Shown: positions 12,235 through 64,000 of the stretch, one piece after another
How positions within the stretch are numbered: position 1 is the stretch's first letter
Layout of the letters: each line of letters opens with the position of its first letter
NCBI GenBank assembly: GCA_030765485.1
Contig: JAVCCR010000014.1
Coordinates: 14,332-78,331, forward strand
Length of the DNA stretch: 64,000 bases
Reading direction: 5' to 3'
From: Candidatus Gygaella obscura
GTDB lineage: Bacteria > Omnitrophota > Gorgyraeia > Gygaellales > Gygaellaceae
Translations under genes and position numbers: made by a program
The notes under the pieces: generated by a model
What the model saw: only the letters and a program-made list of their open reading frames with translations
Database searches by the model: none
Told to the model about the DNA's origin: nothing

Positions 12235-12245
12235 TTTAGAGCTAA

Positions 12246-12959: not shown

Positions 12960-13041
12960 TTTTACAAAAGGTTTATTTGCGATTATTTTTATTAAAATTT
13001 GTTCGCAATAGTTTATAGTTTCTGATAGAATAGATTTTATC

Positions 13042-34364: not shown

Positions 34365-37310
34365 ATGGAAAAAGAAAAAAGAATAAAGTTTGTTTGGAAT
34401 CTGCATTATGCCTGTAATTACAGGTGTAGTTACTGTAATTTTAATGGTAGCTGGGATGAGCTTTCAGTAAAAAATAAGAAAATTAGCAAGAATGATTGGA
34501 TTAAGGCATGGGATAGGATTTATGATTTATATGGAAGCGTTGATATTCATCTTGTTGGTGGAGAGCCTTGCATATATCCTGATTTTACTGAGATTGTTTG
34601 TAGAATCTCAAAGAAGCATTTTTTAGGTCTTACTACTAATCTTTCAGTTGATTTTAAAAGGTTTGCTGACAGTGTTTCGCCGAAAAGATTTGAGTTTGGT
34701 ATAGGGGCTAGTTTTCATCCGCAGTACGTTAAATTTGAAGACTTTCTAAGTAAGGTGATTGAATTGAAGAATAAAGGGTTTAAAATCTGGGTAAATTATG
34801 TTGCCTATCCGCCCCAGATTGATAAAATGAATTTTTTTAAAAGCACACTTCAAAAACACGGTATTCCTTTTGTCGTACAGCCGTTTCGTGGGACATATAA
34901 TGATAAAATTTACCCTGAGGCTTATACCGATAGTGATCGGTCTATTATTAAGGATATTGCCGGTACGGATTCAAGTATTCAGCAAGACATGCAGTATCAG
35001 TTGGATCGCAAGAATACAAAAGGAGTGCTTTGTAGGGCAGGGCAGATCTTAGCACATATAGAACCCGATGGCACAGTTAAAAGATGTGGTTTGATTGAAA
35101 AGCCTATTGGTAATATATTCGATGCAAACTTTCGATTATTAGATAAACCTTTACCTTGCACTGAAGAACATTGTCCTTGTGATTATATATATTTGGTAGA
35201 TTCGAATGAAAAATTAAATGAGTATTCTGCGAAAAGACAAGATAATATCTCGGAAAAAGAAGCAAGCGCACATGTGGTTGTTGATTTGATTGAAGAGGCT
35301 GAATTTTGTCTGTTTAAGCTGGAGGATTTTGATACCGCAGAGGCATTGATAAAAAAGGCACTTGCAAAAGATAAAGATAATATTTGGGGGCTAAGGGTTT
35401 TAGCTAACATTTTTAGAAGAAAAGCTGAAAGTAATAATAATGATAATCTTTTGCTTCAAAAGGCAAGAGAAGTTATTGATGATGCGTTATTTATAAGCAA
35501 AGGGGATTCATGTGTGCTTGCTGAATCAGCGCGGATTTATCTTGCGCAGAATCAATATAGAAAGGCAGATTTTGAAATTGTTAAGGCGATTAAAAAAGAT
35601 TCGGAAAATACATATTTTCAGGAGGTGAATCAGAAGATAAAAGATACGGCCTTGTCTTCTATTGATAAGAATTCTTTATCCGTTTCTAATGATCATTTAG
35701 ATATGATGCTTGTTTTGACTCCGGGGTGGGGTAGGGAATCGGCTCCGTTTGCTCTGGCGTCTTTGACAGGTCTTTTGAGGAAGCATAATTTTATAGTTAA
35801 ATCGTTTGATATTAATAATTTTATTTTTCATAGACTTTCTTCTGATAAAAGCAGTGTACAGTTGTGGGATTGGGAGCAGTGCGGTTTTTGGGACGATCGG
35901 CCGTCTGTCGAAAATTTTATCAATAAAAATTCTATTTTAATAGATTCTATAGTTGATTCTATCCTTAAGCAAAAACCAGAGGTTATCGGTTTCTCGGTAT
36001 ATCTGACAACTAAAATAATGAGTCTTGAGTTTGCAAGACGCATAAAAGCAAAAAATCCTAATATTTTAATAGTGTTTGGTGGTTCGCAGTGTCGCCGAAA
36101 AGAAAACTGGAGAGAGCTTATTGAAAATGATTTTGTCGATGCAATTATTTTAGATGATGCAGAAGCAACAATTATCGATTTTTTGAATATTTTTAAGAAA
36201 GAAAAAAAGATTAAATATTGTCCTGGTCTTATTTATCGTGATGGTACTGATATTATAGATTGTGGTGATAGGTCTGTTGTTGATTTAGATGATTTGCCTT
36301 TTGCCGATTTTAGTGATTTTGATTTTAAAAGCTATAAATGCCCGCATATTATCAAAATTGCTTTTAGCCGTGGTTGTACAGAAGGTTGCGCTTATTGTAG
36401 TGCTCGTACAGTATGGCGGGGTTTTAGGACAATGAATGGAGAGAGGATTTTTAATGAGATAAAGTTTCAGGTCGAGAATTTTCATAAGAGAATGGATTAT
36501 TCAATGATCCCTCATTTAATTTTCCTCGATTCTTTAATCAACGCAAATATGCTTGTATTGAAGGATTGGCTTATGCGGTTAGTGGAAGTACGCAAGGATA
36601 AAAATGGTCCGCTTTTTAATTTTATCTGGAGAGCGCAAGCGATTATACGACCGGAAATGAATGAGGAGATTATATCCTTGATCAAGGATTCAGGGTGTGT
36701 AGAGATAAATTATGGGATAGAAAGCGGTTCTGCAAAGGTCTTAAAAGATATGCGAAAAAGATATACGCCTGAGATTGCAGAAAAGGTAGTTCGTTGTATT
36801 TACAAATATGGTATACCGGCAAAAGCTAATTTTATGTTTGGTTTTCCTACCGAAACAGAAGAAGATTTTAAAGGTACACTAAATTTTATTCAAAGGAATG
36901 CCCGATTTATGACAGAGGTTTATCCTAGCAGGACATTTTGTGCTATTGAGAGATTCACTTATCTGTTTGAAAATAGGGAAAAATTCGGAATTTTACCGCA
37001 AAAGCAGGAAAACCATCTTTTTTGGCAATCGCAGAACGGAAAGAATAATTATCTTGTAAGAGTGGAAAGATATTTTGCCTTCTGTAAGCTACTTGCAAAT
37101 CTTGATCATAAGCCTTTGGTGACGGGGGTTGATAATATTGAACGGGACAAGTGGCTTTCTCTCGGACAGTATTATCAGTATGAACAGGATTTTACCAAGG
37201 CGTTAGAGTGTTATGATAATTATATTAAGTTAAACGGAGTTATTGATTCAGTGGAAGAGTCTATGAATATATGCAAAGCCTATTTATCCAAAAGAGAGAC
37301 GAAAATCTAA
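34365..37310 (+). CDS. Two-module radical SAM fusion: radical SAM module + TPR region + B12-binding (class B) radical SAM
   Basis: N-terminal 'NLHYACNYRCSYCNF' + 'HLVGGEPCIYP' + C-terminal 'CRAG...RCG...PCTEEHCPCD'. After the TPR region: 'MMLVLTPGWGRESAPFALASLTGLLRKHNF' (B12-like) and 'RGCTEGCAYCSART'. Confidence 0.8.
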   Translation: MEKEKRIKFVWNLHYACNYRCSYCNFNGSWDELSVKNKKISKNDWIKAWDRIYDLYGSVDIHLVGGEPCIYPDFTEIVCRISKKHFLGLTTNLSVDFKRFADSVSPKRFEFGIGASFHPQYVKFEDFLSKVIELKNKGFKIWVNYVAYPPQIDKMNFFKSTLQKHGIPFVVQPFRGTYNDKIYPEAYTDSDRSIIKDIAGTDSSIQQDMQYQLDRKNTKGVLCRAGQILAHIEPDGTVKRCGLIEKPIGNIFDANFRLLDKPLPCTEEHCPCDYIYLVDSNEKLNEYSAKRQDNISEKEASAHVVVDLIEEAEFCLFKLEDFDTAEALIKKALAKDKDNIWGLRVLANIFRRKAESNNNDNLLLQKAREVIDDALFISKGDSCVLAESARIYLAQNQYRKADFEIVKAIKKDSENTYFQEVNQKIKDTALSSIDKNSLSVSNDHLDMMLVLTPGWGRESAPFALASLTGLLRKHNFIVKSFDINNFIFHRLSSDKSSVQLWDWEQCGFWDDRPSVENFINKNSILIDSIVDSILKQKPEVIGFSVYLTTKIMSLEFARRIKAKNPNILIVFGGSQCRRKENWRELIENDFVDAIILDDAEATIIDFLNIFKKEKKIKYCPGLIYRDGTDIIDCGDRSVVDLDDLPFADFSDFDFKSYKCPHIIKIAFSRGCTEGCAYCSARTVWRGFRTMNGERIFNEIKFQVENFHKRMDYSMIPHLIFLDSLINANMLVLKDWLMRLVEVRKDKNGPLFNFIWRAQAIIRPEMNEEIISLIKDSGCVEINYGIESGSAKVLKDMRKRYTPEIAEKVVRCIYKYGIPAKANFMFGFPTETEEDFKGTLNFIQRNARFMTEVYPSRTFCAIERFTYLFENREKFGILPQKQENHLFWQSQNGKNNYLVRVERYFAFCKLLANLDHKPLVTGVDNIERDKWLSLGQYYQYEQDFTKALECYDNYIKLNGVIDSVEESMNICKAYLSKRETKI

Positions 37311-40751: not shown

Positions 40752-43700
40752 ATGATTAAAAAGATGAATTTAGTAAAGTATGCCGAGATTATTGTGAATA
40801 ATCAAAAGATTAATGAATCGGAATTTCGAAAAGGCAGAATAACGCTTAAATCTTATCCGCCAAATGTCTTTATGCAGCTCGATGGACCTTGTAACCATAA
40901 TTGCATATTTTGTTCTCGCCCTGAAAAATATGATTATTTTAATTTAGAAGAATTTAAGAAGCGTTTTGTTGATATTATGCCAGTTTTTTTAAATGCAAAA
41001 ATGATTTATCTTACAGGCGCAGGAGAATTTTTAATGCTTCCTGATAGTCTAGATATAATTAAATTCTTTGATAATAATTTTCCCGCCTCTGGCAAAAGCT
41101 TTGCTACAAATGCAACATGTTTTAATAACTATATTTTTAATTATTTAGAAAGCATCAAGAGTAATTTTAGTATTCAGGTGTCTTTGCATGCTAGTAACGC
41201 TGAGTTACATAAAAAACTAGTTGGTAGATATGATTTTGATCAAACTATTCAAAATTTAAGTAGATTATTGGCTATTTCGGAAAATAACCGTAATTTGGAT
41301 GTTTATGCCATGTTTGTTTTAAATACGCTTAATATTTCGGATTTGCCTGAATTTGTAAAGCTGTGTAGTTCTATGGGTATAAGAAAAGTGTGTTGTAATT
41401 ATAATTCTGTTTATAGATTGGATCAGAAAAAACTTTCTTTATTTTTTAATCAGGCAAAAGCTAACGATGTTCTTAATTCAGTGCGTTCTTTAGCTTCAGA
41501 TCTTTCTATTGAGATTAATTTACCTCCTTTATTTGCGAAAGATAATTCCTATTACAAATTCTGTAAGGATTATTGCAGTGATCCTTGGTATCAGATAATG
41601 CTTAATTTCAAGGGAGAAGTTATGCCTTGCTGTTTATTTGAGGGGGTTGCTCCGGGGAATATACTGGAACAAGGGTTTAAAAAGATTTGGAATGGGGAAG
41701 TTTATAAAGCGTTGAGGGAATCAATACTCAATAAGAAAAAAGCTATTTATTGTAATTATTGCATAGAAAACAATCCGGAATCTGTGAATCATATCAAATC
41801 TCATTTGATAATTCGAGGAAAGAACAAACAAGAACTTCAGGAATTTCTTAAGCCAGAGTTTGATACGAGAGTTACTATTGATGAAAATAAAATGATTCAA
41901 TTTGTTTGGCGTTTGAACTACGAATGCAATTTTAATTGTCCTTATTGTTCAGTGATGTATTGGGGCGAAGAAAAAATTACCAGAAAAGACAAAACAGTGT
42001 TTTTATCAGTCGATGAATGGATTGAGCATTGGGAAAAGATATACGATATATACGGAAGTGTGGAGATTCATATTGTAGGTGGAGAGCCAACTATTTATCC
42101 AGGGTTTTTTAAATTGGTGGAAAGATTATCTAAAAAGCATTATTTCGGTTTTGATACTAATCTTTCTGCTGATTTTACAGATTTTATAAAAACTATTCCT
42201 CCTGAAAGAGTTAGTTTTGGTATTGGGGCAAGTTTTCATCCTACGCAGACCAAATTCGAAGATTTCATAAATAAGGTTGATAGGTTAGCAAGGGCAAATT
42301 TTAAGATATGGATAAATTATGTAGCATATCCTGAGCAATTAAACGAAATAGCTTATTATAAAAACGAGGTAGAAAAAAGAGGGTATCATTTTGTGATGCA
42401 ACCTTTTTGCGGTAAATACAAAGATAAAATCTATCCTAAGGAATATATAGATAATGAAAAAAACATAATGAGAGGTCTTGCAAAAGGTAATAGCGTTCTA
42501 GAAGAGAATATGCAGTATCAGCTTGAGCAGAAGATAGTAAAAGGTAAGCTTTGTTATGCAGGTATGAAGTTTGCTTTTATACATGCAGACGGTACTATAA
42601 AAAGATGCGGCGAGGGGCCAAGTCCTGCTATTGGTAATTTTTTCGATAAAGAGTTTAGGCTTTTTGATAAGCCGTTGCCCTGTGATTGTGATACATGCTA
42701 TTGTGAGTTTAAATGGTTGGTGGAGAATGAAAGAAAGACCACGCAGCAAGAAGAAAATAAGAGCTTAATTGTAAAGCAAGTCAAGAATAGTGATTTTGGA
42801 GATAAATTCAAGAAGATCAATAGATTAATTATGGATGATGAGTTAGATGAGTCAAAAAAAATTGCTAGAGAGGTTTTGGATTGTGATAAAGACAACGGTA
42901 ATGGTTTTAGTGTTATGGCAAAAATATACCGTATGAAAGCACAGTCGATAGATTTGGTTTCGGCTAGGGAAGATTATGCTTATTTAGCCAAGTCTAATAT
43001 AAAACGGGCATTGGAATATGACCCTGATGATTTATCTGCACAGTTGGAAGCTATTCGTATTTTTATTATCGATAAGGACGTAATTGCAGCAAAAAAGATT
43101 TTTGATAATATAATGATTAAATATCCAGAATCTGAAGAGGCACATGCACTGGTTAAAAGAATAGAGCATTTAAATAGAGAACTTCATAGAAGTCATCAAG
43201 CTGTTGAGATTTTTCGTAAAGAAAAGAATATTTTTTCAAGAATAAAATCAAAGGTAATAGCAAAAGATATGAGATTTTCTTATCGAGTTATTTTCGATTG
43301 GGATATGCATTATGATTGTAATTATAGTTGCTCATATTGTTACTATAAAAATAAATGGAATGAGTTATCGTTAAAAAACATATATCCTGGTAACAGTAAA
43401 CTAATACGGATATGGAGTAATATTTATGATACTTTCGGTAAGTGTTTTATAAGACTTAATGGTAGAGAACCAAGTGTGTACCCTGATTTTTTCAATCTTA
43501 TAAAAGGTCTTTCTTTAAAACATACATTGGAATTAAATACGAATCTGTTTTTTGATTTTGAAAGATTGATAGAGACGGTTGCTCCTGAAAACGTAAGTAT
43601 TAAAGCAATTTTCCATAAAGAAAATGTGAGTTTAGAATCATTTTTGAATAAGGCAAGTTATCTTAACAGGCATGGTTTCCAGGTAAGCGTTGTTTGTTTG

Positions 43701-44147
43701 GCTCATCCGGATAATTTAAATGAACTTTATAGGATAAAACAAGCCGTAGAAGATATTAATCTTACTTTTCTGATTGAACCGTTTCAAGGAGTATATAAAG
43801 AATTAGAATATCCCCATGGGTATTCTTTTGAACAAATGAGAATTATTTCGGATATAGTAGCTTTTTCACCTGTGAATAAACTTATTTTCGAGCCAATTCT
43901 TAGGAAAGAAAAGATAATAAATAATGATAGGCGGTTATGCAGGATGGGCCAGCTTTATGTAAAGGTTTTTTCTGATGGTGAGATATATCGCTGTAGAGAT
44001 AATTTATCAGAGAAAATCGGTAATCTTTACAATGATGATAATCTTTTTGTTTGGAACGAACCTAGATATTGTGACAAGAAAAGCTGTTCTTATTGGAATG
44101 CAATGATTGTAGGTAAAGAAAAGAAATGGATTCGATATTGGAGATAA
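40752..44147 (+). CDS. Three-module radical SAM fusion (rSAM/SPASM-like + rSAM module + TPR + rSAM module)
   Basis: Module 1 'GPCNHNCIFCSRPE...SLHASN...CSDPW...PCCLFEG...CNYCIENN', paralogous to the giant fusion's C-terminal domain. Module 2 'RLNYECNFNCPYCSV...HIVGGEPTIYP...GIGASFHP...CGEG...PCDCDTCYC', ~60% identical to the N-terminal module of 34365. Module 3 'DMHYDCNYSCSYCYY...'. Confidence 0.8.
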   Translation: MIKKMNLVKYAEIIVNNQKINESEFRKGRITLKSYPPNVFMQLDGPCNHNCIFCSRPEKYDYFNLEEFKKRFVDIMPVFLNAKMIYLTGAGEFLMLPDSLDIIKFFDNNFPASGKSFATNATCFNNYIFNYLESIKSNFSIQVSLHASNAELHKKLVGRYDFDQTIQNLSRLLAISENNRNLDVYAMFVLNTLNISDLPEFVKLCSSMGIRKVCCNYNSVYRLDQKKLSLFFNQAKANDVLNSVRSLASDLSIEINLPPLFAKDNSYYKFCKDYCSDPWYQIMLNFKGEVMPCCLFEGVAPGNILEQGFKKIWNGEVYKALRESILNKKKAIYCNYCIENNPESVNHIKSHLIIRGKNKQELQEFLKPEFDTRVTIDENKMIQFVWRLNYECNFNCPYCSVMYWGEEKITRKDKTVFLSVDEWIEHWEKIYDIYGSVEIHIVGGEPTIYPGFFKLVERLSKKHYFGFDTNLSADFTDFIKTIPPERVSFGIGASFHPTQTKFEDFINKVDRLARANFKIWINYVAYPEQLNEIAYYKNEVEKRGYHFVMQPFCGKYKDKIYPKEYIDNEKNIMRGLAKGNSVLEENMQYQLEQKIVKGKLCYAGMKFAFIHADGTIKRCGEGPSPAIGNFFDKEFRLFDKPLPCDCDTCYCEFKWLVENERKTTQQEENKSLIVKQVKNSDFGDKFKKINRLIMDDELDESKKIAREVLDCDKDNGNGFSVMAKIYRMKAQSIDLVSAREDYAYLAKSNIKRALEYDPDDLSAQLEAIRIFIIDKDVIAAKKIFDNIMIKYPESEEAHALVKRIEHLNRELHRSHQAVEIFRKEKNIFSRIKSKVIAKDMRFSYRVIFDWDMHYDCNYSCSYCYYKNKWNELSLKNIYPGNSKLIRIWSNIYDTFGKCFIRLNGREPSVYPDFFNLIKGLSLKHTLELNTNLFFDFERLIETVAPENVSIKAIFHKENVSLESFLNKASYLNRHGFQVSVVCLAHPDNLNELYRIKQAVEDINLTFLIEPFQGVYKELEYPHGYSFEQMRIISDIVAFSPVNKLIFEPILRKEKIINNDRRLCRMGQLYVKVFSDGEIYRCRDNLSEKIGNLYNDDNLFVWNEPRYCDKKSCSYWNAMIVGKEKKWIRYWR

Positions 44148-54322: not shown

Positions 54323-55042
54323 ATGCTTGGAATTAATATCGCAGTGTTAACTAAACAGCAAATTGTTCAAAAGCTTATTGAATTCTCCAGGCCGCCAATG
54401 GTGAATACGGTTTTTTATTTAAACGCTCATTGTATTAATCTTGCTTCTGTAGATGCAGATTATCGTAAGATATTAATTAATAGCGATATTGTTTACTCAG
54501 GGGGATTTGGTGTAGTGTGGGCATCAAGTTTTTTGGGTAAATCACTGCCAGAGAGAGTCAACATTTTGGATTTTTTTGACGAGTTAACTAGTCATTTGAT
54601 TGAGAATAAGACTAAGGTTTATTTGCTTGGTGATGAAGATATTGTTATTAAAGCCTGCGAACTTGAATTAAAGGGAAAAGGAATAAATATAGTTGGTTGT
54701 CATAGTGGTTTTTTTGGCGATGGCGAAGAAAAATCCATTATTGAGAACATTAATCGGTTATCTCCTGATATTTTAATGGTTGGTATGGGCGTTCCAAGAC
54801 AAGAAAAATGGATTAGTAGAAATAAATCCAAAATTAAGGCGAATTTAATATGGGGTGTTGGTGGTGCATTCTGTTGGCTTTCTGGAAAACGTAAGAGAGC
54901 CCCACGCTGGATGATAAATAGTGGTTTTGAGTGGTTCTATAGGTTAATGCAGGAGCCAAAAAGGCTACGGAGCCGTTATGTATTCGGCAATATTGTGTTT
55001 CTTTCCAGAGTTTTATTCTGGAAAATAAGAAGAATTGATTAA
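54323..55042 (+). CDS. WecB/TagA/CpsF-family (GT26) glycosyltransferase
   Basis: 'GINIAVLTKQQIVQKL', 'FYLNAHCINLA', 'MVGMGVPRQEKWI'. Confidence 0.8.
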   Translation: MLGINIAVLTKQQIVQKLIEFSRPPMVNTVFYLNAHCINLASVDADYRKILINSDIVYSGGFGVVWASSFLGKSLPERVNILDFFDELTSHLIENKTKVYLLGDEDIVIKACELELKGKGINIVGCHSGFFGDGEEKSIIENINRLSPDILMVGMGVPRQEKWISRNKSKIKANLIWGVGGAFCWLSGKRKRAPRWMINSGFEWFYRLMQEPKRLRSRYVFGNIVFLSRVLFWKIRRID

Positions 55043-55043
55043 A

Positions 55044-56030
55044 ATGAATAGGAAGTTTAAGATAATTTTATTTTTATTCTTAATGATTGATTTAGCGATA
55101 ATTTTTTTATTATTTAACTCGCGGAGCTTTTCGCATTTAGCAATATGGAATATTGAGGAATCATTGTCACAAAAAGATTTTAATTGGTTCAAGGAAACGC
55201 CTGCTCCAAAATCTTATGTTATTCCGGATAAAGAAAAGCTTAGCTATTTCAACCAAGAGGCTAATAAAATTAACCTTAAGAATAAAAATGAACTAGAAGC
55301 CGTATTGTTTTTATCAGGAAGGTTAATAGGTGCGCTAAATGTTAATTATCAAACAAAAAAATATGTTACATGGGATCATCCTCAATCAATGGATAGATAT
55401 ATACAGGATGGCCACGGTGCAAATTGCATATATCGCTCTATTGTTTTATCAAGTTATCTTTCAAGTATGGGTATTTATTCTAGGTTGTGGAGTTTGGAGA
55501 ATATATTTTTTGAAGATATTCCGCATACGGTAATTGAAGTTTATGCAAAACATTTAGAAAAATGGGTTTTTCTTGATGTTATGCATGATTTTATGGTTTT
55601 GAAAGATGGAATTCCATTGTCATTGCTTGAATTTAGATCCCTAGTTTTAAGTGAAAGTGACGCTGATATAAAAATAATACGTATTTCTACACGCAAAGAG
55701 ATGGATAAGGATTTTCTGGATGGGTATAGGCACTTGTTAAATACCGTTTTTTTGAGGCTTGACAATGATTTTATCAAGGGATTTGAGAAAAGATACGGAA
55801 TATTGAATATATTTTCATTATCTATCGATCGTTTAAGCGATAAATTTAGAAGAGGTATTGATTATATTTTTGGCTCAAAGGAATATTTTATTCATTTTGT
55901 AGATAGATATAGTCCCAGTCTAAGTTCCGGTATTCTTTTTTCAAAAAGTGTTTATTTATTTTTCGTGTTTAGTTTTCTTTTATTTTTCATTATTTGTTTT
56001 GTATATTTAATGAAAAGAAGAAAAAGATAA
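55044..56030 (+). CDS. Hypothetical membrane-anchored protein (possible transglutaminase-like Cys-His-Asp core)
   Basis: N- and C-terminal TM helices. 'GHGANCIYRSIV' ... 'IPHTVIEVY' ... 'WVFLDV' ordering resembles a transglutaminase-like core. Weak. Confidence 0.35.
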   Translation: MNRKFKIILFLFLMIDLAIIFLLFNSRSFSHLAIWNIEESLSQKDFNWFKETPAPKSYVIPDKEKLSYFNQEANKINLKNKNELEAVLFLSGRLIGALNVNYQTKKYVTWDHPQSMDRYIQDGHGANCIYRSIVLSSYLSSMGIYSRLWSLENIFFEDIPHTVIEVYAKHLEKWVFLDVMHDFMVLKDGIPLSLLEFRSLVLSESDADIKIIRISTRKEMDKDFLDGYRHLLNTVFLRLDNDFIKGFEKRYGILNIFSLSIDRLSDKFRRGIDYIFGSKEYFIHFVDRYSPSLSSGILFSKSVYLFFVFSFLLFFIICFVYLMKRRKR

Positions 56031-56042
56031 TAATATAATTAA

Positions 56043-56960
56043 ATGCAATTAGAAATAAGAAACAAAAATAGATTATTTTACGAAATACGTTTAAAAATTA
56101 AAAAGATAATCTATTCAAACGAATATTTATTAAGAAAGTATTCTTTTCTCAAAAGTATTGTCATTAAATATTTTTCTTGTAACCAATTGAAAGATAATAA
56201 GTTATTTGAAAAGGTGTTTATTGAGACTATCTCATATTGTAATAATGATTGTGAATTTTGTTCTGTTCGCATATCAAGCGTTATAAAGAAAAGTTCCAAT
56301 TTGATGGAAGAGGGTATTTTTTTAAAGATAATTGAGGAATTAGTTAATTTATCTTTTAAAGGAAGCGTTGCTTTTCATTGTAATAATGAGCCATTTTTGG
56401 ATGAAAGACTACCGTATTTTATAAAGCTAGCTAGAAAAATGCTTAAAAAAAACTTCTTTTATTTATATACAAATGGAACATTACTTACGGATGAATTATT
56501 AAAAGATGTTTTTATTGTTGGGATCAATCGTATTATAGTTAATGATTATAATGGTTCGTTTAAATTAATGCAAACAGTTGAAAATTTTGTTAAACATAAT
56601 CGCGAACTAAATGGTGAGATAATATTTTACCATAGAAAAACAAATGAATTTTTAGGCAATAGATCAGGTGCAAGCCCCAATAAGAGGTTAATTTTAGAAA
56701 AACCATTAAAGGCAATATGCATAAGGCCGGCAAAAGAGATTGTTATTTGTTATGATGGTTCGGTTATGTTATGTTGCTGCGATAGTTTATGGAAAAATAA
56801 AATGGGTAATATTAATGAAAGTAGCTTAAAAGATATATGGGTAGGCCATGATTTTGCAAGTAAGCGTAAGGCATTGTTGAGGTTTAACCGAAATATTAGT
56901 TCAATTTGTAAAGTTTGCGATGCGGTGGATTTATCCGTTAAAAAAGGAGTCTTGTTCTAA
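56043..56960 (+). CDS. Radical SAM/SPASM-like protein
   Basis: 'ISYCNNDCEFCSV', C-terminal 'CIRPAKEIVICYDGSVMLCCCDSLW...CKVCDA'. Confidence 0.75.
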   Translation: MQLEIRNKNRLFYEIRLKIKKIIYSNEYLLRKYSFLKSIVIKYFSCNQLKDNKLFEKVFIETISYCNNDCEFCSVRISSVIKKSSNLMEEGIFLKIIEELVNLSFKGSVAFHCNNEPFLDERLPYFIKLARKMLKKNFFYLYTNGTLLTDELLKDVFIVGINRIIVNDYNGSFKLMQTVENFVKHNRELNGEIIFYHRKTNEFLGNRSGASPNKRLILEKPLKAICIRPAKEIVICYDGSVMLCCCDSLWKNKMGNINESSLKDIWVGHDFASKRKALLRFNRNISSICKVCDAVDLSVKKGVLF

Positions 56961-56962
56961 GG

Positions 56963-57415
56963 ATGAATAATAAAAAAGATAATGTTTTATCAGAAACTTT
57001 CTTTTATGAGGCGAATGGTTATAGCATGTGGCCTTTTTTAAAACCGGGTTATAAACTTATAGTAAAAAAAATATCTATTTATGAGATAAAATTAGGAGAT
57101 TTGGTTTTGTATAGATATAAGAATAAACTAATTTGCCATAGAGTTATCAGAAAGAGTTTAAAGAATGATGATGTTGTTCTTTATTTGAGAGCAGATAATT
57201 CCTGCTGTGGTAGTGAATGTATAAGTAGTGTTAATTATGTTGGTAAGGCAGTTGAATTATGTTTGGAAAATAAGGTTATAAGTCTTATTTCATGGCAAAT
57301 GATATTTGTTAATCGTTTGTTAGTAATATTTTCCCCATTTGTTTATTGTGTAATAAAGCCGTTGTGGCAAATTTTGCGAAAGGTAAGGAACTCTTGGCAA
57401 AAAAGAAGAAAATAA
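56963..57415 (+). CDS. S24/S26-family (signal-peptidase/LexA-like) Ser-Lys peptidase-like protein
   Basis: 'NGYSMWPFLKPGYKLIV...GDLVLYR' (Ser nucleophile motif) and 'CHRVIRK' (candidate general-base Lys). 150 aa. Confidence 0.45.
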   Translation: MNNKKDNVLSETFFYEANGYSMWPFLKPGYKLIVKKISIYEIKLGDLVLYRYKNKLICHRVIRKSLKNDDVVLYLRADNSCCGSECISSVNYVGKAVELCLENKVISLISWQMIFVNRLLVIFSPFVYCVIKPLWQILRKVRNSWQKRRK

Positions 57416-59592
57416 AGCTTTTATTTATTCAGTTACCTTCTCCAGAGTATGTTTTTCAGAAGTTTTGGGGAAATGTTCCTCTTGCCGCGGGTTATCTCAA
57501 GGCCATGGCTTATAAAAATAAACTACTTAAGTATATTGATATAGAAATTTTAAGGCCCATAGATACAAATCTATCTTCAGATTCAAGACTTGTTAATTTA
57601 ATAGTTAATAAATCTCCTGATGTATTAGCGGTATCTTTATATATCTGGAATTCTTTGAGAAGTCTCCATATGATTAATCAGGTAAAGAAGAAATTACCAA
57701 ACATTACTATACTTTGTGGGGGGTCAGAGGTATCGGATGATTCTAAATATATTCTTAATAATCCGAATGTAGATTTTGGTTTTCTTGGAGAAAGCGAGAT
57801 ATCATTCGTTAACTTTTTGAAGGAATTAATTAGTAAAAATAGAGATTTTAGTAAAGTAAAAGGTATTTTTTATCGCGAAAAAGATAGAATTATAATTAAT
57901 CCCAGAGAAGAAATTATGCATAATCTAGATGAAATTCCATCTCCTTTTGAATTAGGTTTTCTGGATGTGTCTGAATATAAAGTAGTATCCTATGAGTCCG
58001 TTAGAGGGTGTATTAATAATTGTTCTTATTGTGGTGTAGGAATAAGACCAATGAGGTTTTTTTCTGCAAAAAGAGTAGGTAACGATTTAAAAATTATTAT
58101 TAAAAAAAGAGTTATAGCAATTCGTTTTATTGATAGTGATATCTTACTTCATCCTTATTTTGAGCAAATTGGTGAACAGATTAAGGTTATTAATAGAAAT
58201 AAAAACACTGTATTCTTTGCTTTTTCATATCCAGAGAGGATAGATCAAAGAATAGCGAGGCTTTTTAAAGATTGTAATTTTGATTTTTTTGAATTAGGTT
58301 TACAGTGTTTAAAAACTAAGACATTTAGAAATATTAAAAGATCTATTATGAATAAACAAAAGTTTATTAAAGGAATTAGGTGTTTATCAAAAGAAGGAAT
58401 CAATTATGCTATTGATGTTATGATAGGTTTACCTGATGATACCTTGTCAGATTTGAAAAAGGTAAAAAAGTTTATAGATAATAATAGGATTCCTAAGATT
58501 ATCCCTGCAGTTTTGATGATACTTCCTGATACACCTTTAAGAAAACAAGCAAAGAAACGCAAGATAGTGTTTTCAAAAATTCCTCCATATTTTATTAAAA
58601 AAGCTCCTTATATTTCAGGTGATGAAATCAAAAAGGCTAAAGATTTGTTAGGAGTAAGAGAAGATTACGTTAAGTTACCAGATTTATTTTCTGAGAATTA
58701 TGATCTTCCATTTAGATCAAAGCTTCAAATAAAGACAAATAATCTAAATTTATCAAAAGTGGGTAATGGAAAATTACTAATAAATAAGTTGATTATTGAT
58801 TTAGACAATCTAAATTATTTGAGTTTTAAAAAAAAGATTAGTTTAGTCTTAAAAAATATTTCATCTCCATTTACTTTTTGGATAAAAACAAGAGATTTTG
58901 ATAGATCAGTTGGTTTATTTTACGAGATTGTTGATTTCATAGCATTGGATAATCCATATTTAATGTGGAATATAATTATTGAAAGCAAAAAGGTCTTTTC
59001 TAGGACAATACCAAGAGAAATTAGTAAAAAGGTTATTTGTAAAGAAAATGTCGTGGCGGATATCTGTAATTGTGTTAAACCTATAAAAATCTGTGCTGTT
59101 TTTGATTTTGGTTTGACTGAAGAAAAAGAAATCTCAGATTTAAATATGGAAATTCCAGTTTTTCGATCTATTTTTGCTAAGGATACTTTGAATTTTGAAA
59201 AAGATTGCTTAAAGGTTTTAGAATTAAATAATTCTAAAGGTATAATTGTATCATTCAAAAAAAACTTAGACCATAAAGATTTCATTATAATGTTAGATTT
59301 TATGTTTAGTTTATTTCATAAATCCTCCAAAGATGTTGTTTTTAGAAGTTACGTAGTAAGATTTCTTTGGAAGTTATTTACTAAGAAAGATAAGAATATT
59401 GTTATTTTTCCTGATGTTTTAGAGTCTATTTTAAAGTTAGGGCATAAAAATAATTATTTATTTATTGAGGCTAATACTAAGTTATTGTATTCTTTGCTAT
59501 GTCTACAGTTGGAATTCAATAAGTATATTAATAATAGTACTAAAGATTTAAATAATTCTTTATCTAATCATAAAAATGACTATTTTGTATAG
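57394..59592 (+). CDS. B12-binding (class B) radical SAM protein with long C-terminal extension
   Basis: 'KIKLLFIQLPSPEYVFQKFWGNVPLAAGYLKAMAY' B12-binding-like N-terminus, 'RGCINNCSYCGVG'. Start uncertain: TTG 57394 has an 'aggtaagga' RBS, and the ORF track offers TTG 57346. Confidence 0.7.
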   Translation: MAKKKKIKLLFIQLPSPEYVFQKFWGNVPLAAGYLKAMAYKNKLLKYIDIEILRPIDTNLSSDSRLVNLIVNKSPDVLAVSLYIWNSLRSLHMINQVKKKLPNITILCGGSEVSDDSKYILNNPNVDFGFLGESEISFVNFLKELISKNRDFSKVKGIFYREKDRIIINPREEIMHNLDEIPSPFELGFLDVSEYKVVSYESVRGCINNCSYCGVGIRPMRFFSAKRVGNDLKIIIKKRVIAIRFIDSDILLHPYFEQIGEQIKVINRNKNTVFFAFSYPERIDQRIARLFKDCNFDFFELGLQCLKTKTFRNIKRSIMNKQKFIKGIRCLSKEGINYAIDVMIGLPDDTLSDLKKVKKFIDNNRIPKIIPAVLMILPDTPLRKQAKKRKIVFSKIPPYFIKKAPYISGDEIKKAKDLLGVREDYVKLPDLFSENYDLPFRSKLQIKTNNLNLSKVGNGKLLINKLIIDLDNLNYLSFKKKISLVLKNISSPFTFWIKTRDFDRSVGLFYEIVDFIALDNPYLMWNIIIESKKVFSRTIPREISKKVICKENVVADICNCVKPIKICAVFDFGLTEEKEISDLNMEIPVFRSIFAKDTLNFEKDCLKVLELNNSKGIIVSFKKNLDHKDFIIMLDFMFSLFHKSSKDVVFRSYVVRFLWKLFTKKDKNIVIFPDVLESILKLGHKNNYLFIEANTKLLYSLLCLQLEFNKYINNSTKDLNNSLSNHKNDYFV

Positions 59593-59613
59593 AAATATAT
59601 TTTGTGGTATAAT
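59585..59613 (+). promoter_or_regulatory. Extended -10 sigma70 promoter for the small peptide gene (TTGTAT-17-TGgTATAAT)
   Basis: -35 at 59585-59590, TG at 59605-59606, perfect TATAAT at 59608-59613. Followed by AGGAGG (59632-59637) 7 nt before the ATG at 59645. Confidence 0.4.
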
Positions 59614-59644
59614 TAATTATTAATTGGATTAAGGAGGAGTGATT

Positions 59645-59881
59645 ATGAAGAAGAAAAAATTTATTTCACCGAAAATTTCTGTGATAAAACTTGCCCCTGA
59701 GCAGGCGGTTTTATCTTGTAATTGTTATAGTAGCGGGAGCCATGTTACTGGCAGTAGTGTACATAATGTTGGAATTGCTTCTGCGTCAAGAGGTTATTGT
59801 TGGGCAAGGGGAAATGCATTTCATTTAATTCATGCAAGTGGGGGAAGATGGGGTTCTGCAAGCAGTTCAAGTAGTTCCTAG
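59645..59881 (+). CDS. 78-aa Ser/Gly/His-rich peptide with basic N-terminal leader-like segment and poly-Ser C-terminus; candidate RiPP/glycopeptide precursor
   Basis: MKKKKFISPKISVIKLAPEQAVLSCNCYSSGSHVTGSSVHNVGIASASRGYCWARGNAFHLIHASGGRWGSASSSSSS. Has its own promoter and consensus RBS, and is flanked by modifying enzymes. Confidence 0.5.
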   Translation: MKKKKFISPKISVIKLAPEQAVLSCNCYSSGSHVTGSSVHNVGIASASRGYCWARGNAFHLIHASGGRWGSASSSSSS

Positions 59882-59961
59882 TCTATCTATAATATAATGT
59901 GGTTTCTATTCAATTAATAAACTAATAATATTATAACATTAGGTAAATATATTTGCTTTTT

Positions 59962-60915
59962 ATGAAAACGGGCAAATTAAAACATATATATAAATTCAAA
60001 ATAGCAGATATAATTGTTCATATATCAAGCTATATAAAATTAAGGGATAATTCATTTACCCTCCATAAGCAGAGGTTTTCCCGTTTTATGTACAGCGGTA
60101 AAAAACTCCCTTCTATCACAATCGATGTAAAAGTAGTAGATTCTTTTCCCGAAATAACCTTAAAGCCTATTTTTGTAGTTTATGATTTGGATCTAGATAG
60201 TGCAAATTGGAAATTATACAAGAAAAATAATGAGTACATCTACGCAATAAAATGCATAGGAACGGATATGGTCGCTTTTATAAATAGAAAGTTTGATAAA
60301 GCTCGTGTTTTTATCAGTAAGAAAGAAGAATGTAACTATCGGGGAGAATTTATTAGATTTGATTTTTCTTGGGAGATATACGACGTTGTTACATATCTAC
60401 TTCAATTTCTTATGACTCATTATTTGATTGAAAATAAATTAGGAGTGATAATACATTGTTGTGGTATAAAAAATCGTTTTAATAAAGGGTTTATTTTTGC
60501 AGGTAGTTCTGGATGCGGAAAGACAACAATTGCGAGAATAATGGAGAAATCAAAAGAAAATGAAGTTTTAAACGACGATAGGATAATTGTTAGAAAAAGT
60601 AAAGATAAGTTTAAAATGTATGCCTCTCCTTGGAGAGGGGAGTTTGAGAATTTTGTAAATTCAAATACAAATGGGATTGATTTAAATAAAATTTATTTTA
60701 TTTATCCTCACCAGGAAAATGTATTAGGTTTAATTGAACCCAAAAAAGCTTTTTACAAAATAAGTACTTTGATTTTAGCGTCATTTTGGAATAAAGAATA
60801 TATTAAGAGAGCTTTTGATTTCTGTAAGTATTTAGTGAAAGATATTTCTTGCTATGATCTTGGGTTTAAAAACAACAAATCAATAACAAAATATTTGTTT
60901 TCAAAAAAGAAATAA
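59962..60915 (+). CDS. HPr-kinase/phosphorylase C-terminal-domain-like P-loop protein
   Basis: 'GFIFAGSSGCGKTTIARI' matches the HprK-type GxSGxGK(S/T) P-loop. ATG at 59962 (the ORF-track TTG at 59953 is an alternative). Confidence 0.5.
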   Translation: MKTGKLKHIYKFKIADIIVHISSYIKLRDNSFTLHKQRFSRFMYSGKKLPSITIDVKVVDSFPEITLKPIFVVYDLDLDSANWKLYKKNNEYIYAIKCIGTDMVAFINRKFDKARVFISKKEECNYRGEFIRFDFSWEIYDVVTYLLQFLMTHYLIENKLGVIIHCCGIKNRFNKGFIFAGSSGCGKTTIARIMEKSKENEVLNDDRIIVRKSKDKFKMYASPWRGEFENFVNSNTNGIDLNKIYFIYPHQENVLGLIEPKKAFYKISTLILASFWNKEYIKRAFDFCKYLVKDISCYDLGFKNNKSITKYLFSKKK

Positions 60916-60922
60916 GTAAACA

Positions 60923-62146
60923 ATGAAATGGCTAAGAATTGAAGTAGCGAATTATTGTAATTTAGAGTGTAAATATTGTTTTTTTGCTGATTTAAGGAGC
61001 AAGAATAAAGATGATGTTATGAGTTTTGATGAGTTTAAAAGAATTGTTAGTCTTTGTCGTAAGGAAGGGATTAAGGAAATTTATATACAGGGCGGCGAGC
61101 CTATGCAGAATCCTAATATTGAAAAAATGATTAACTTATTGGTTTCTTATGATGATTTTAATGTAACTTTATTTACAAACGGGTTGTTTCCTATTGGTTT
61201 AACAGAGATTTTAAATTATCCAAGAATAAAAACGCTTTTAAATTATAATCACCCAAATAATTGTAATAATTATAAAGATTGGGAAGATATAAATCAAAAC
61301 ATAAAAAAACTGAAAAAAATTGGTGCAGATTTTTCTCTAGGTTTTAATTTTTATCAACATAAACCAGACTATGGATATTTTATTGACGCCATAAAAAAAT
61401 ATAAGTTTAAAAACATAAGATGGGATTTAGCAAGGCCTTCTGGTATGCTTAAAAATAGTTTTTTTTCTTTTAAAGAGATATTCAGTTTGCGTATCATCTT
61501 AGCAAAGTTTTTAAAAGACTGTCTTGATGCTGGAGCATTTCCTAATTCAGATTGTCCTCTGCCGGTATGTTTCACGAAAGATAAGATTTTTTCTTTTCTT
61601 CCCAGGGGACTATTTAGTCCTTTTTCGAGCTGTGATTCAATTGTTAATATTGGTCCAGGGTTGCGAATTTCTAGTTGTCCGGCATCAGTGATGTTTGATA
61701 AGATAAGACTTGATGATTTCGGTTCTTTAAATCAAGTAGCAGAATTTGTATCTTACTCTATAGATAAAATAAGATGGAGAATTCCTTCAAACGTTAAATG
61801 CAAAAAATGTTTTTATTGGGAAAATAGACTTTGTCAAGGTGGTTGTGTAGGTTATAAACGTATAAATAATAATAAAGTTATTGGACGTAGAGAGTTGCAC
61901 GATTTTTTTAAAGATAAGGATAATTATAAAAAGATATCTTCCAGGGATAGTTTCTATTCTAAGAAATTGAATAAAGAGAAAGATTTCTTTAAAAAAGGAC
62001 TTTTGTCGCTGAAAATTAGTGATAATGATCAGGCTTTTAAAAATTTCATTAAAGTAGATAAAAGAACGCTTTCTATAACAGAGAAAAAATGGTTAAACAA
62101 CTATTTGAATGATCAGATTAGTTTTATTGTAAATGAGAGAAATTAA
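60923..62146 (+). CDS. Radical SAM/SPASM-like protein
   Basis: 'NYCNLECKYCFF', 'IQGGEP', C-terminal 'CPLPVCF...SSCDS...SSCPAS...CKKCFYWENRLCQGGCVGY'. Confidence 0.8.
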   Translation: MKWLRIEVANYCNLECKYCFFADLRSKNKDDVMSFDEFKRIVSLCRKEGIKEIYIQGGEPMQNPNIEKMINLLVSYDDFNVTLFTNGLFPIGLTEILNYPRIKTLLNYNHPNNCNNYKDWEDINQNIKKLKKIGADFSLGFNFYQHKPDYGYFIDAIKKYKFKNIRWDLARPSGMLKNSFFSFKEIFSLRIILAKFLKDCLDAGAFPNSDCPLPVCFTKDKIFSFLPRGLFSPFSSCDSIVNIGPGLRISSCPASVMFDKIRLDDFGSLNQVAEFVSYSIDKIRWRIPSNVKCKKCFYWENRLCQGGCVGYKRINNNKVIGRRELHDFFKDKDNYKKISSRDSFYSKKLNKEKDFFKKGLLSLKISDNDQAFKNFIKVDKRTLSITEKKWLNNYLNDQISFIVNERN

Positions 62147-62165
62147 AGCATTTTCGTGGTTTTAA

Positions 62166-62894
62166 ATGAAAAAAGAAAGTTTGATTGTTTTGTTTTCCGG
62201 GGGGGTTGATTCTACTTATACCGCCATGAAAATGGCAGATATTTATAAGACTCTGCATTGCCTTACTTATGAAAGATTTGGTTTTATAAATGCAAGTAAT
62301 TCTGAAAAAAGTTTCCAGCAGGTATCTGAAAATAACAAAGACATCAAAGCAGTACATAAAATTATTAATATCGATAATTTTGTTAAGAAAGTTTCCTACA
62401 GTAATTATTTAATAAATCTTTGTAAATATGGTTTTGTTGTTCTGTCGAATTGTCTTATTTGCAAATTAGCAATGCATTGGAGGACAATAATTTATTGTAG
62501 AGAAAATAATTTGAAAGAGGTTTGTGATGGTGCAAATAAGGAAATGTATGGAGACCCATCCCAGAATAAAGTTATTTTAGAAAAGATTGTGAAGTTGTAC
62601 GAGTATTTTAATATTAGATATTTTAGTCCATTTTTTGATGAGTTAAGAAAAGAAAGAGAAGATTATCTTTTTGCTGTTGAAATAATTCCTGTGCAGTATG
62701 CGAAATGGAGTAGGTTTTCAAGGGAGAGACAACCTTTTTGTTGCCAAGAGCATCTATCTGTTTTATTTAAGCGGTTTAGAGAAAATATTTTAAATCAATA
62801 TTCTAATTTGAATATGAAAAATATCGAAAAAGATATTTGTGAGTATTGTGATGAAAAAATAAGCTGTATCAAAAATGAAATTGAAAGAAATTAG
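62166..62894 (+). CDS. PP-loop ATP pyrophosphatase family protein (QueC/ExsB-like)
   Basis: 'LIVLFSGGVDSTYTA' SGGxDS motif. C-terminal Cys pairs ('CEYCDEKISC'). Confidence 0.55.
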   Translation: MKKESLIVLFSGGVDSTYTAMKMADIYKTLHCLTYERFGFINASNSEKSFQQVSENNKDIKAVHKIINIDNFVKKVSYSNYLINLCKYGFVVLSNCLICKLAMHWRTIIYCRENNLKEVCDGANKEMYGDPSQNKVILEKIVKLYEYFNIRYFSPFFDELRKEREDYLFAVEIIPVQYAKWSRFSRERQPFCCQEHLSVLFKRFRENILNQYSNLNMKNIEKDICEYCDEKISCIKNEIERN

Positions 62895-63318
62895 ATTTTT
62901 GTCTTTGTGTTTGAATGTATTACGACATGGATTACTTTTTTTGAAGCTACTAGTTGCAGTATTTTTACCTTATAAAATTAGATGTTTTTATTCTGAATGG
63001 TTAATGAAACTGGAATTTGGTTTTAAAATTGATAAGAAAAATGGCATTATAGCAGGTGAAAAATTTGATAGAAGAAGAGAATATGATATTTTTGTTTCAA
63101 GAGGGATAGCTTACTATAATGATGGTTGTGTTGAAAAGGCATTAAAAAGCTTTAATAAAGCATTGGAGTTGTCTTTTAATAAAAAAAGCGCATTTTATGT
63201 TTATTCACTGCTTCAAGAAATATATAGCAAGAATGATATTACTGATTTATATTTTGAAACAATTTTGAGTGCTTATAAATCCAAAAAAGATTTAATTAAT
63301 AAGGAAGAGGTTTTGTAG
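62875..63318 (+). CDS. Small hypothetical protein with TPR-like helical repeat
   Basis: 'GIAYYNDGCVEKALKSFNKALELSFNKKSAFYVYSLLQEIY' is TPR-like. Overlaps the upstream gene by 20 nt. Confidence 0.4.
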   Translation: MKLKEIRFLSLCLNVLRHGLLFLKLLVAVFLPYKIRCFYSEWLMKLEFGFKIDKKNGIIAGEKFDRRREYDIFVSRGIAYYNDGCVEKALKSFNKALELSFNKKSAFYVYSLLQEIYSKNDITDLYFETILSAYKSKKDLINKEEVL

Positions 63319-63319
63319 C

Positions 63320-64000
63320 GTGGTAAACAAGAAGATTTTTTTAATTGAAAATCATGATAGTGCTTTGAAAGTTTGGAAAGACAATAGAATTAAATGTTGT
63401 AATTTGGTGCACATAGATGCTCATATTGACTGGAATTTCATTAAAGCAAGACCTTTAAAGCGCGTACTTAAAGAGTCTTGTTCTTTAAAAGAATTAAAGA
63501 CTAATCTTGAGTATAGCTATGCCTATTTGCGTTACGATCGTGATTTTAATAAGCAAGTCAATGAGGGCAATTATATTTTTCAGGCTTTTGAAGAAGGCAT
63601 AGTTAAAGATTTTTTTTGGGTTATTCCAGGAGATAAGAAAATATTTAAAGATTCAAGCAAGATTATAAGAGGATTACTTTTAAGAATTGGTAGGTTTTAT
63701 AGTAAAAAAAGCACTATAAGAATCGATAAAAAATCGTGCAAAGCGGAAATAAGATTCAATGGAAGAAAGATAGTATTTTGTACTTTGGACGGCCTTGATT
63801 TTATCAACAGAGATGTGCTTCTTGATATAGACATAGATTTTTTGGTGATTAAAAGCATTAAGCGGTCTCTTAATATTCAAGATATAGGAACACGGCAGCT
63901 ATGGATAAACCCTGAGAAATTAATTGTTTGTTTAAAAAGTAAAATTCGTAAATTCAAGATTGCAACAATTGCGTATTCTGTTAATGGGGGGTGGACTCCT
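63320..64000 (+). CDS. Hypothetical protein, 3'-partial (open to the window end); GTG start 2 nt after the upstream stop
   Basis: Frame 2 is open from 63320 to the window edge. 'IFLIENHDSALKVWKDNRIKCCNLVHIDAHIDWN' resembles a metal-binding DxHxD-type motif. Missing from the ORF track only because no stop falls inside the window. Confidence 0.45.
   Translation, partial: MVNKKIFLIENHDSALKVWKDNRIKCCNLVHIDAHIDWNFIKARPLKRVLKESCSLKELKTNLEYSYAYLRYDRDFNKQVNEGNYIFQAFEEGIVKDFFWVIPGDKKIFKDSSKIIRGLLLRIGRFYSKKSTIRIDKKSCKAEIRFNGRKIVFCTLDGLDFINRDVLLDIDIDFLVIKSIKRSLNIQDIGTRQLWINPEKLIVCLKSKIRKFKIATIAYSVNGGWTP

Follow-up and report, generated by a model that had tools for sequence, protein, structure and literature searches.

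A candidate precursor peptide family and its putative radical-SAM and kinase maturation cluster in Candidatus Gygaella obscura and other Omnitrophota

We analyzed a 64,000-nucleotide stretch of DNA (the window) from a metagenome-assembled genome (MAG) of Candidatus Gygaella obscura (Omnitrophota), which originates from Ace Lake, Antarctica. We found a small gene, at 59645-59881 on the + strand, that probably encodes the precursor of a peptide synthesized ribosomally and modified post-translationally (RiPP). Its cluster would extend from ~56 kb to at least 10 kb past the end of the window. The 78-aa product, MKKKKFISPKISVIKLAPEQAVLSCNCYSSGSHVTGSSVHNVGIASASRGYCWARGNAFHLIHASGGRWGSASSSSSS, has a leader (residues 1-24), the motif C25-x-C27-Y, and a hypervariable core that contains C52 and ends in Ser. 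A first-pass annotation had proposed a precursor at this position. That reading is now supported by a peptide family with a conserved leader and variable core, and by synteny with a RiPP recognition element (RRE), radical S-adenosylmethionine (radical-SAM)/SPASM enzymes, a kinase and a peptidase. The open reading frames (ORFs) named in that annotation all exist where it had placed them, on the + strand.

We found that the peptide is one of at least 110 unique members of a family. The family surfaced only through an exhaustive phmmer search and a motif-based genome scan; a word-indexed protein search with the peptide returned the peptide itself only, and one with the neighboring kinase alone returned three proteins. 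Among 1.8 billion representative proteins, phmmer found ~40 small proteins (64-99 aa) whose alignments start at residue 2-3, and in the alignment of these proteins K4, P9, L16, P18, E19, Q20, V22, L23, C25, C27 and C52 are invariant. The scan took a single genome for each GTDB species and the pattern PEQAVLxCxC; it gave 57 loci, 41 of them labelled Omnitrophota. Pooled results amount to 110 unique members. Because 110 homologues share the conserved N-terminus, we conclude that the ORF at 59645-59881 is a real gene.

The leader and the core of these peptides differ greatly in conservation. Among the 110 members, pairwise identity averages 71% for the leader and 19% for the C-terminal part of 33-78 residues. 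The leader consensus is M-x-[KR]-K-P-K-F-[KR]-P-x-[IV]-T-R-[VI]-K-L-N-P-E-Q-A-V-L-[SAT]-C-x-C-[YFW]-x-x-G; at several positions all 110 members have the same residue. The Cys pair is C-x-C in 109 of the 110 members. A further Cys follows in 109/110, at a median of 23 residues past the pair, often with G/K/R-rich positions after it. The last residue is Ser in 95 members and Thr in 13; only two truncated ORFs depart from this. Each locus has one to three precursor copies. We rejected a Sec signal peptide in the leader, which has no hydrophobic stretch.

The homologues also bear on which residues might be modified. The first-pass annotation had asked whether core positions are conserved among relatives, and we found that C25, C27, the third Cys and the terminal Ser/Thr are. 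The motifs YCW, WAR, FHL and RWG, which it had suggested as possible sites of cross-linking, are not conserved in the family. Nor is the C-terminal run of Ser, suggested as a site of phosphorylation or glycosylation; only the terminal Ser/Thr is kept. In the library of papers searched, we found no description of the leader motif or the family, including in broader papers on Omnitrophota, radical-SAM enzymes and RiPPs. The cluster goes unmentioned in the genome papers on Gygaella and Omnitrophota, and a 2025 paper on peptide arginases does not cover it. Pfam and NCBIfam hold no model that matches the precursor (no match at E<=0.01).

The relatives of the peptide gene lie among similar sets of enzymes. 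We called ORFs in the 57 loci, all from other genomes and many of them ending at contig ends, clustered the products, and searched them with the Gygaella proteins. A conserved radical-SAM/SPASM enzyme was present in 43/57 loci (best E 1e-113), a PqqD protein in 41 (1.5e-26), an ATP-binding cassette (ABC) exporter in 31 (from clustering, with no E-value), a ScmC-like kinase in 29-36 (1e-64), an S24-like peptidase in 23-26 (1e-34), a UPF0489 protein in 19-20 (1e-121), and an NTP_transf_5 protein in 15 (6.3e-35). The usual order is a Sec11/SipW-type peptidase (~145 aa), a UPF0489+TPR protein (~490 aa), PqqD (~93 aa), one to three precursors, a radical-SAM/SPASM enzyme, the ScmC-like kinase, a second radical-SAM/SPASM enzyme, an MsbA/HlyB-type ABC exporter (~580 aa), and NTP_transf_5. 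In a canonical locus, L043, Pfam and NCBIfam matched PqqD (PF05402, 3e-10) and NTP_transf_5 (1.4e-54), and the ABC exporter was without a C39 peptidase domain. The first-pass annotation had also asked whether the peptide occurs without such enzymes. A radical-SAM/SPASM enzyme, PqqD or the kinase was present in 33 of the 36 loci of at least 12 kb.

In one genome, we found PqqD and the precursor within the same ORF. At three full paralogous loci of one marine Omnitrophota MAG, JAHJHM01, they form a single continuous ORF with a Lys/Arg/Glu-rich linker (L032, 8868-9623; L039, 7151-7990; L053, 10070-10792). A fragment at a contig end of the same MAG (L034, 2-367) has the same read-through, and in the L032 fusion a Leu stands in place of the usual Met of the peptide. 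These three ORFs appear to be natural fusions of a recognition protein to its precursor, and they link the two physically.

Not all of the enzymes first proposed as partners are shared by the family. Only two are family-wide, the S24-like peptidase and the HprK-like protein. In contrast, the radical-SAM proteins at 56043 and 60923 had only weak homologues, in 4 and 11 of the 57 loci, respectively, the B12 radical-SAM enzyme had homologues in five, and the PP-loop protein in none. Other genes were seen in and around the related cassettes. Pairs of peptidase-U32-family proteins (clusters c12 and c10) are accessory genes inside the cassettes of L006, L015, L019, L031, L038 and L050; the U32 family takes in the oxygen-independent hydroxylases UbiU and UbiV. 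A gene of the '23S rRNA-intervening sequence protein' family (PF05635, cluster c16) lies between radical-SAM genes in four loci, including L008 (5065-5439), L021 and L029. Many related loci are bordered by genes for GT4, WecA-like, Wza, Wzc, ExeA-like AAA and HD-domain proteins.

In Gygaella, the cluster is larger than the range of 56043-63318 first given for it. A second contig, L063, matches the window at 100% identity along 11,126 bp and adds 10 kb downstream. Its genes are, in order, the complete UPF0489+TPR protein (487 aa), PqqD (96 aa; 11929-12219 of L063), the family-wide radical-SAM/SPASM enzyme (359 aa; 12234-13313), YcaO, a 514-aa B12 radical-SAM enzyme, NTP_transf_5 (16459-17523, opposite strand), a B12 radical-SAM enzyme (767 aa), and a second PP-loop protein. 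The recognition protein and the core maturase are thus encoded outside the window. The gene that starts at 63320, directly after the first range, encodes the arginase-like UPF0489 protein.

Within the window, the genes of the cluster are all on the + strand. Upstream of the precursor are a radical-SAM/SPASM enzyme (305 aa, 56043-56960; Pfam Radical_SAM and SPASM), which we regard as a lineage-specific accessory, a Sec11/SipW-type (S24/S26) membrane peptidase (56963-57415; Peptidase_S24 and sigpep_I_arch matches), which is the candidate leader peptidase, and a 742-aa B12-binding radical-SAM enzyme whose C-terminal extension is long (57364-59592, alternative start at 57346; B12-binding and Radical_SAM). 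Downstream are a ScmC-family kinase with an HPr-kinase/PEPCK fold, predicted to act on the C-terminal Ser (59962-60915), and a radical-SAM enzyme of 407 aa (60923-62146; Radical_SAM and Fer4_12). These are followed by a lineage-specific PP-loop ATPase with the motif SGGVDS, of the form SGGxDS (242 aa, 62166-62894; weak LarE/MnmA/QueC matches), a small lineage-specific TPR protein (147 aa, 62875-63318), which has homologues in 0/57 loci, and the first 226 of the 487 residues of the UPF0489 (arginase-fold)+TPR protein, which runs off the end of the window (63320-64000; Pfam UPF0489, E=2.9e-5).

Pfam and NCBIfam upheld the first domain calls of radical SAM, B12 radical SAM, S24-like peptidase and PP-loop. 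Two further points concern the radical-SAM enzymes. The protein at 60923, called a SPASM protein, has no Pfam SPASM domain, but a SPASM-like C-x2-C-x7-C-x3-C motif is present close to its C-terminus; its CxxxCxxC motif is at residues 11-18. A PqqD-type RRE had been considered for the proteins at 56043 and 60923. Neither has a Pfam PqqD domain, and the RRE is the separate PqqD protein. The cluster motif is preceded by ~55 residues in 56043 and begins at residue 11 in 60923, which has no N-terminal RRE.

The tailoring enzymes resemble known maturases at a distance. The closest solved relatives of the conserved radical-SAM/SPASM enzyme are SkfB and PqqE, both thioether-forming. The radical-SAM enzymes gave sub-threshold matches to models for StsB, AlbA, PapB, PqqE and the mycofactocin maturase. 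The B12 enzyme at 57364 gave sub-threshold matches to KedN5-like and RiPP C-methyltransferase models, and it is a probable C-methyltransferase-type tailoring enzyme. In the peptidase family (23 homologues), GxSMxP, H-R and D are conserved, the Ser-His-Asp pattern of Sec11/SipW. A small residue follows V-L in the leader, giving V-L-[S/A/T], in 88 of the 110 peptides. The L043 orthologue of the UPF0489 protein matched the NCBIfam model 'peptide arginase, FlmR/OhkR family' (NF052474) at 9.6e-13 and 48 bits (cut-off 350), and the fragment in the window matched only Pfam UPF0489 (25 bits; cut-off 27). The two Gygaella PP-loop ATPases (62166-62894 in the window and 19872-20444 in L063), ~10 kb apart, are 46% identical over 191 residues. 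One of them is encoded directly after a large B12 radical-SAM gene, and neither has a homologue in the 57 loci.

The kinase family retains the catalytic residues of HPr kinases. H165, G-x-S-x-x-G-K187-[ST] (Walker A) and L-N-D205-D206-R are invariant. The spacings are 22 residues from His to Lys and 18 from Lys to Asp-Asp, which differ by at most one residue from the spacings of Lactobacillus casei HPrK/P. Fold comparison identified an HPrK/PEPCK fold. Pfam ScmC (PF27840) is precomputed on the window kinase (faintly in one listing) and on all 21 profile matches. The likeness to HPr kinase is one of fold and catalytic motifs only, as the kinase scored 20 bits against NCBIfam hpr-ser (TIGR00679; cut-off 240). 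By analogy with lasso peptide kinases, the enzyme probably phosphorylates the invariant terminal Ser/Thr of the peptide. In pseudomycoidin biosynthesis, PsmK, of the HprK family, phosphorylates the C-terminal Ser, a D158A/D159A mutant is inactive, and the NTP-transferase PsmN is required for addition of hexose to the phosphate (PMC6993621). The D205-D206 pair of the Gygaella kinase corresponds to D158/D159 of PsmK.

The precursor gene has strong translation signals. As the first-pass annotation had noted, its ribosome binding site is strong: AAGGAGG (59631-59637, + strand) stands 7 nt ahead of the ATG. Of the 31 + strand genes in the 19-64 kb region, the majority have no Shine-Dalgarno site, and this match is the best of all. 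The extended -10 promoter also claimed there is present as a motif, TGGTATAAT, in the intergenic gap (59605-59613, + strand). However, motifs of the TGnTATAAT type are not above chance in the window: TGNTATAAT was seen 6 times (6.9 expected), and a promoter scan gave 43 sites (51.8 expected). The position of TGGTATAAT alone is therefore suggestive, and we do not rely on a promoter.

Based on these results we suggest the following pathway. The peptide, predicted to be strongly translated, would be bound through its leader (residues 1-24, ...KISVIKLAPEQAVLS) by the stand-alone PqqD encoded ~4.9 kb downstream, as synteny and the natural PqqD-precursor fusions indicate. Radical-SAM/SPASM enzymes would then act on C25, C27 and C52, most likely forming thioether-type cross-links, as do SkfB and PqqE. 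The family-wide enzyme encoded after PqqD would be the common one, to which this lineage would add those at 56043 and 60923. B12 radical-SAM enzymes, YcaO and the PP-loop proteins may introduce lineage-specific decorations, and the arginase-like UPF0489 protein may turn Arg into ornithine. The ScmC-like kinase (59962) would phosphorylate the side chain of the invariant C-terminal Ser/Thr, and NTP_transf_5 may put a sugar on that phosphate, by analogy with PsmK and PsmN. Finally, the membrane peptidase (56963) would remove the leader, speculatively after V-L-[S/A/T] and ahead of C25, and the MsbA/HlyB-type ABC transporter would export the product in most relatives. The predicted pathway resembles the sactipeptide/ranthipeptide route combined with the kinase and nucleotidyltransferase tailoring of lasso peptides.

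Several observations weigh against assigning the peptide as a RiPP precursor. The Gygaella peptide gene does not adjoin PqqD and lies ~4.9 kb upstream of it; judging from gene order in the relatives, this single precursor gene has apparently moved there, beside the kinase. (A second precursor copy was sought in the window and the 10 kb downstream, and none was found.) We saw no dedicated exporter in the 74 kb examined in Gygaella. Three of the 36 larger loci (L010, L014 and L037) have orphan peptide genes with no cassette enzymes within 5-10 kb on either side; these might depend on cassette enzymes encoded at another site in the genome. No protein of the cluster reached a curated NCBIfam cut-off, so the enzyme functions rest on superfamily-level similarity. 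A profile of the kinase family searched against PDB sequences gave P-loop-level matches only (HPrK, E=0.13), and fold comparison was needed to reveal the HPrK relationship. The promoter motif is without statistical support. Every chemical step, including the Cys cross-links and the C-terminal Ser phosphorylation, is one that we infer. Lastly, part of the core resembles another kind of protein. Residues 39-57 (59759-59815), HNVGIASASRGYCWARGN, are like one RCC1-type repeat (HTCGI..G.AYCWG.G), and 17 of the 57 phmmer matches to the peptide were long RCC1-type repeat proteins. Against a repeat profile, this peptide scored 20.8 bits; shuffled controls reached 6.7. The other 109 members scored at most 5.9, and we rejected the likeness as a family trait. 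It is peculiar to the Gygaella peptide.

An alternative, which we consider unlikely, is that the modified peptide forms part of, or primes, a surface glycoconjugate, in which a phospho-Ser made by the kinase and NTP_transf_5 would anchor a glycan from GT/Wzy/Wzt/Wza/Wzc machinery. The cassette directly follows ~37 kb of same-strand glycan genes (GT2/GT4 glycosyltransferases, Wzy_C, ABC-2/Wzt, PMT_2 and WecG), and this stretch includes fusion proteins of glycosyltransferases with radical-SAM/SPASM enzymes. Glycan genes (GT4, WecA-like, Wza, Wzc and an ExeA-like ATPase) adjoin the cassette in 24 of the 36 larger loci, a count that comes without a genomic background, and in pseudomycoidin the hexose on the phospho-Ser depends on a PsmN-type NTP_transf_5. 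However, surface-polysaccharide genes are common. Most relatives have an MsbA/HlyB-type exporter, typical for peptide export, and we found no link of the peptide to a polymer. A broader version of this idea is similarly improbable. It would make the family a new RiPP class, found mostly in Omnitrophota, of cross-linked hypervariable peptides that are phosphorylated and then glycosylated on the C-terminal Ser and joined to, or templating, a surface polysaccharide. If true, it would amount to a ribosomally encoded, diversifiable surface glycoconjugate, possibly used in cell-cell interaction by ultra-small, often host-attached bacteria.

The glycan stretch contains several large multidomain proteins. 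A 2163-aa fusion protein (25147-31638) has two GT2, one GT4, one radical-SAM and two SPASM domains. Next to it, a 900-aa protein (31654-34356) combines two modules, B12 radical-SAM and radical-SAM/SPASM, and a 981-aa protein (34365-37310) has radical-SAM, TPR and B12 radical-SAM parts. A 1131-aa protein (40752-44147) has SPASM, radical-SAM and TPR parts. The fusions of glycosyltransferases with radical-SAM/SPASM domains seem out of the ordinary; they hint that a glycan or glycopeptide undergoes radical chemistry.

We think it very unlikely that the peptide is instead a sacrificial scaffold for a small cofactor, like PqqA for PQQ or MftA for mycofactocin, with only C-x-C-Y or the terminal Ser kept in the product. 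A stand-alone PqqD with a radical-SAM/SPASM enzyme is the architecture of the PQQ and mycofactocin systems, the radical-SAM enzymes have sub-threshold matches to PqqE and the mycofactocin maturase, and a few residues are invariant. In contrast to cofactor precursors, which are short, single and conserved, these peptides have long (33-78 residues), hypervariable cores of variable length, up to three paralogues per locus, and an ABC exporter. The hypervariable core and the one to three precursor copies argue for a diversified secreted product rather than a cofactor. Least probable, in our view, is an ordinary unmodified small protein, such as a single RCC1-like blade or a Cys metal-binding protein, whose neighboring enzymes act on other substrates such as glycans: residues 39-57 and the many window radical-SAM enzymes fused to glycosyltransferases would fit, but the RCC1 likeness is confined to one member, cores at 19% identity cannot share one fold, and PqqD synteny and the PqqD-peptide fusions indicate peptide recognition.

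The closest described system is the SynChlorMet cassette (ScmC, TIGR04249; ScmD, TIGR04248; ScmE, TIGR04250; ScmF, TIGR04251; Pfam PF27840). Both have an HPr-kinase-like ScmC, a small PqqD, and two radical-SAM/SPASM enzymes. However, scores of the Omnitrophota proteins are far from the curated cut-offs: 16-35 bits for ScmC (cut-off 125), 27-36 for ScmD (100), and 26-91 for ScmE/ScmF (400). Beyond the SynChlorMet set, the Omnitrophota cassette comes with a defined precursor family, an ABC exporter and three further proteins: a Sec11/SipW-type peptidase, an arginase-like protein and NTP_transf_5. To our knowledge, the TIGRFAMs description of SynChlorMet names no precursor, and we found no mention of that cassette in the library of papers searched.

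Two more distant kinds of ScmC cassette, one in L067 and the other in L069 and L070, contain similar but shorter peptides. That in L067 (12189-12359) encodes a 56-aa peptide, ...RIELNPEQAVLGCC...C...GS, and those in L069 (5022-5183) and L070 (3270-3431) encode a 53-aa peptide, MEKKAKKRYEKPTLKGATAFEAAAALCC..C...DTS. L069 and L070 have genes for S24, ScmC, PqqD, radical-SAM/SPASM, the peptide and NTP_transf_5. We rejected L069 as a curated SynChlorMet system; as for L043, its scores are under the cut-offs. These peptides share a plan: their N-terminus is Lys-rich, A-x-L-x-C-C is followed by a third Cys, and the last residue is Ser. The association of such a kinase with a peptide ending in Ser extends past the Gygaella family. 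Because they are built on the same plan, this type of precursor may be general to ScmC-family cassettes.

Other RiPP systems share parts of the cassette. Kinase-type lasso peptide clusters (paeninodin PadeK; PsmK/PsmN) likewise combine an HPr-kinase-family enzyme and a PqqD-family RRE with NTP_transf_5 and an ABC exporter, and their precursor also ends in Ser; the PqqD of the present cassette scores best against the lasso PqqD model. Unlike those clusters, the Omnitrophota cassette has no lasso cyclase and apparently no conserved B2 protease; it has radical-SAM/SPASM enzymes, three invariant Cys and much longer precursors. We rejected a lasso peptide: there is no asparagine-synthase domain in the window, L063 or L043, and the PP-loop proteins are LarE/QueC-like and only 242 aa. 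Sactipeptide and ranthipeptide systems (SkfB/SKF, AlbA/subtilosin, PapB/freyrasin) likewise use radical-SAM/SPASM maturases on Cys-containing precursors. There, fusion of the RRE to the N-terminus of the radical-SAM enzyme is usual, though not universal. In contrast, the RRE here is separate, the leader motif is new, and there are extra kinase, nucleotidyltransferase and arginase-like partners. Prochlorosin-type families have in common a highly conserved leader, hypervariable cores, and several precursor paralogues per enzyme set, but their enzyme is LanM rather than radical-SAM/SPASM and the leaders are unrelated. We rejected a proteusin, as the peptide has no nitrile-hydratase-like (NHLP) or Nif11 leader match in Pfam or NCBIfam at E<=0.01.

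One further gene, just upstream of the cluster, may or may not belong to it. It encodes a membrane protein (55035-56030, + strand) with a weak Transglut_core (Cys-His-Asp) match (Pfam E=8e-4, under the curated cut-off), which recalls the transglutaminase-like B2 leader protease of lasso peptide clusters; none of the 57 related loci contains a homologue.

The secreted chemistry of Omnitrophota is obscure; these uncultured bacteria are often ultra-small and may depend on a host. Defined here are a family of precursors, at least 110 of them, whose leader is near-invariant, the enzyme set that accompanies it, and two candidate modification sites, the three Cys and the terminal Ser/Thr. The pairing of an HPr-kinase-type enzyme with NTP_transf_5, characterized so far only in lasso peptides, would extend to radical-SAM peptides. 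The family suggests what the substrate of uncharacterized ScmC-type cassettes is likely to look like, and the leader motif together with a stand-alone PqqD offers an immediate starting point for genome mining and for heterologous expression.

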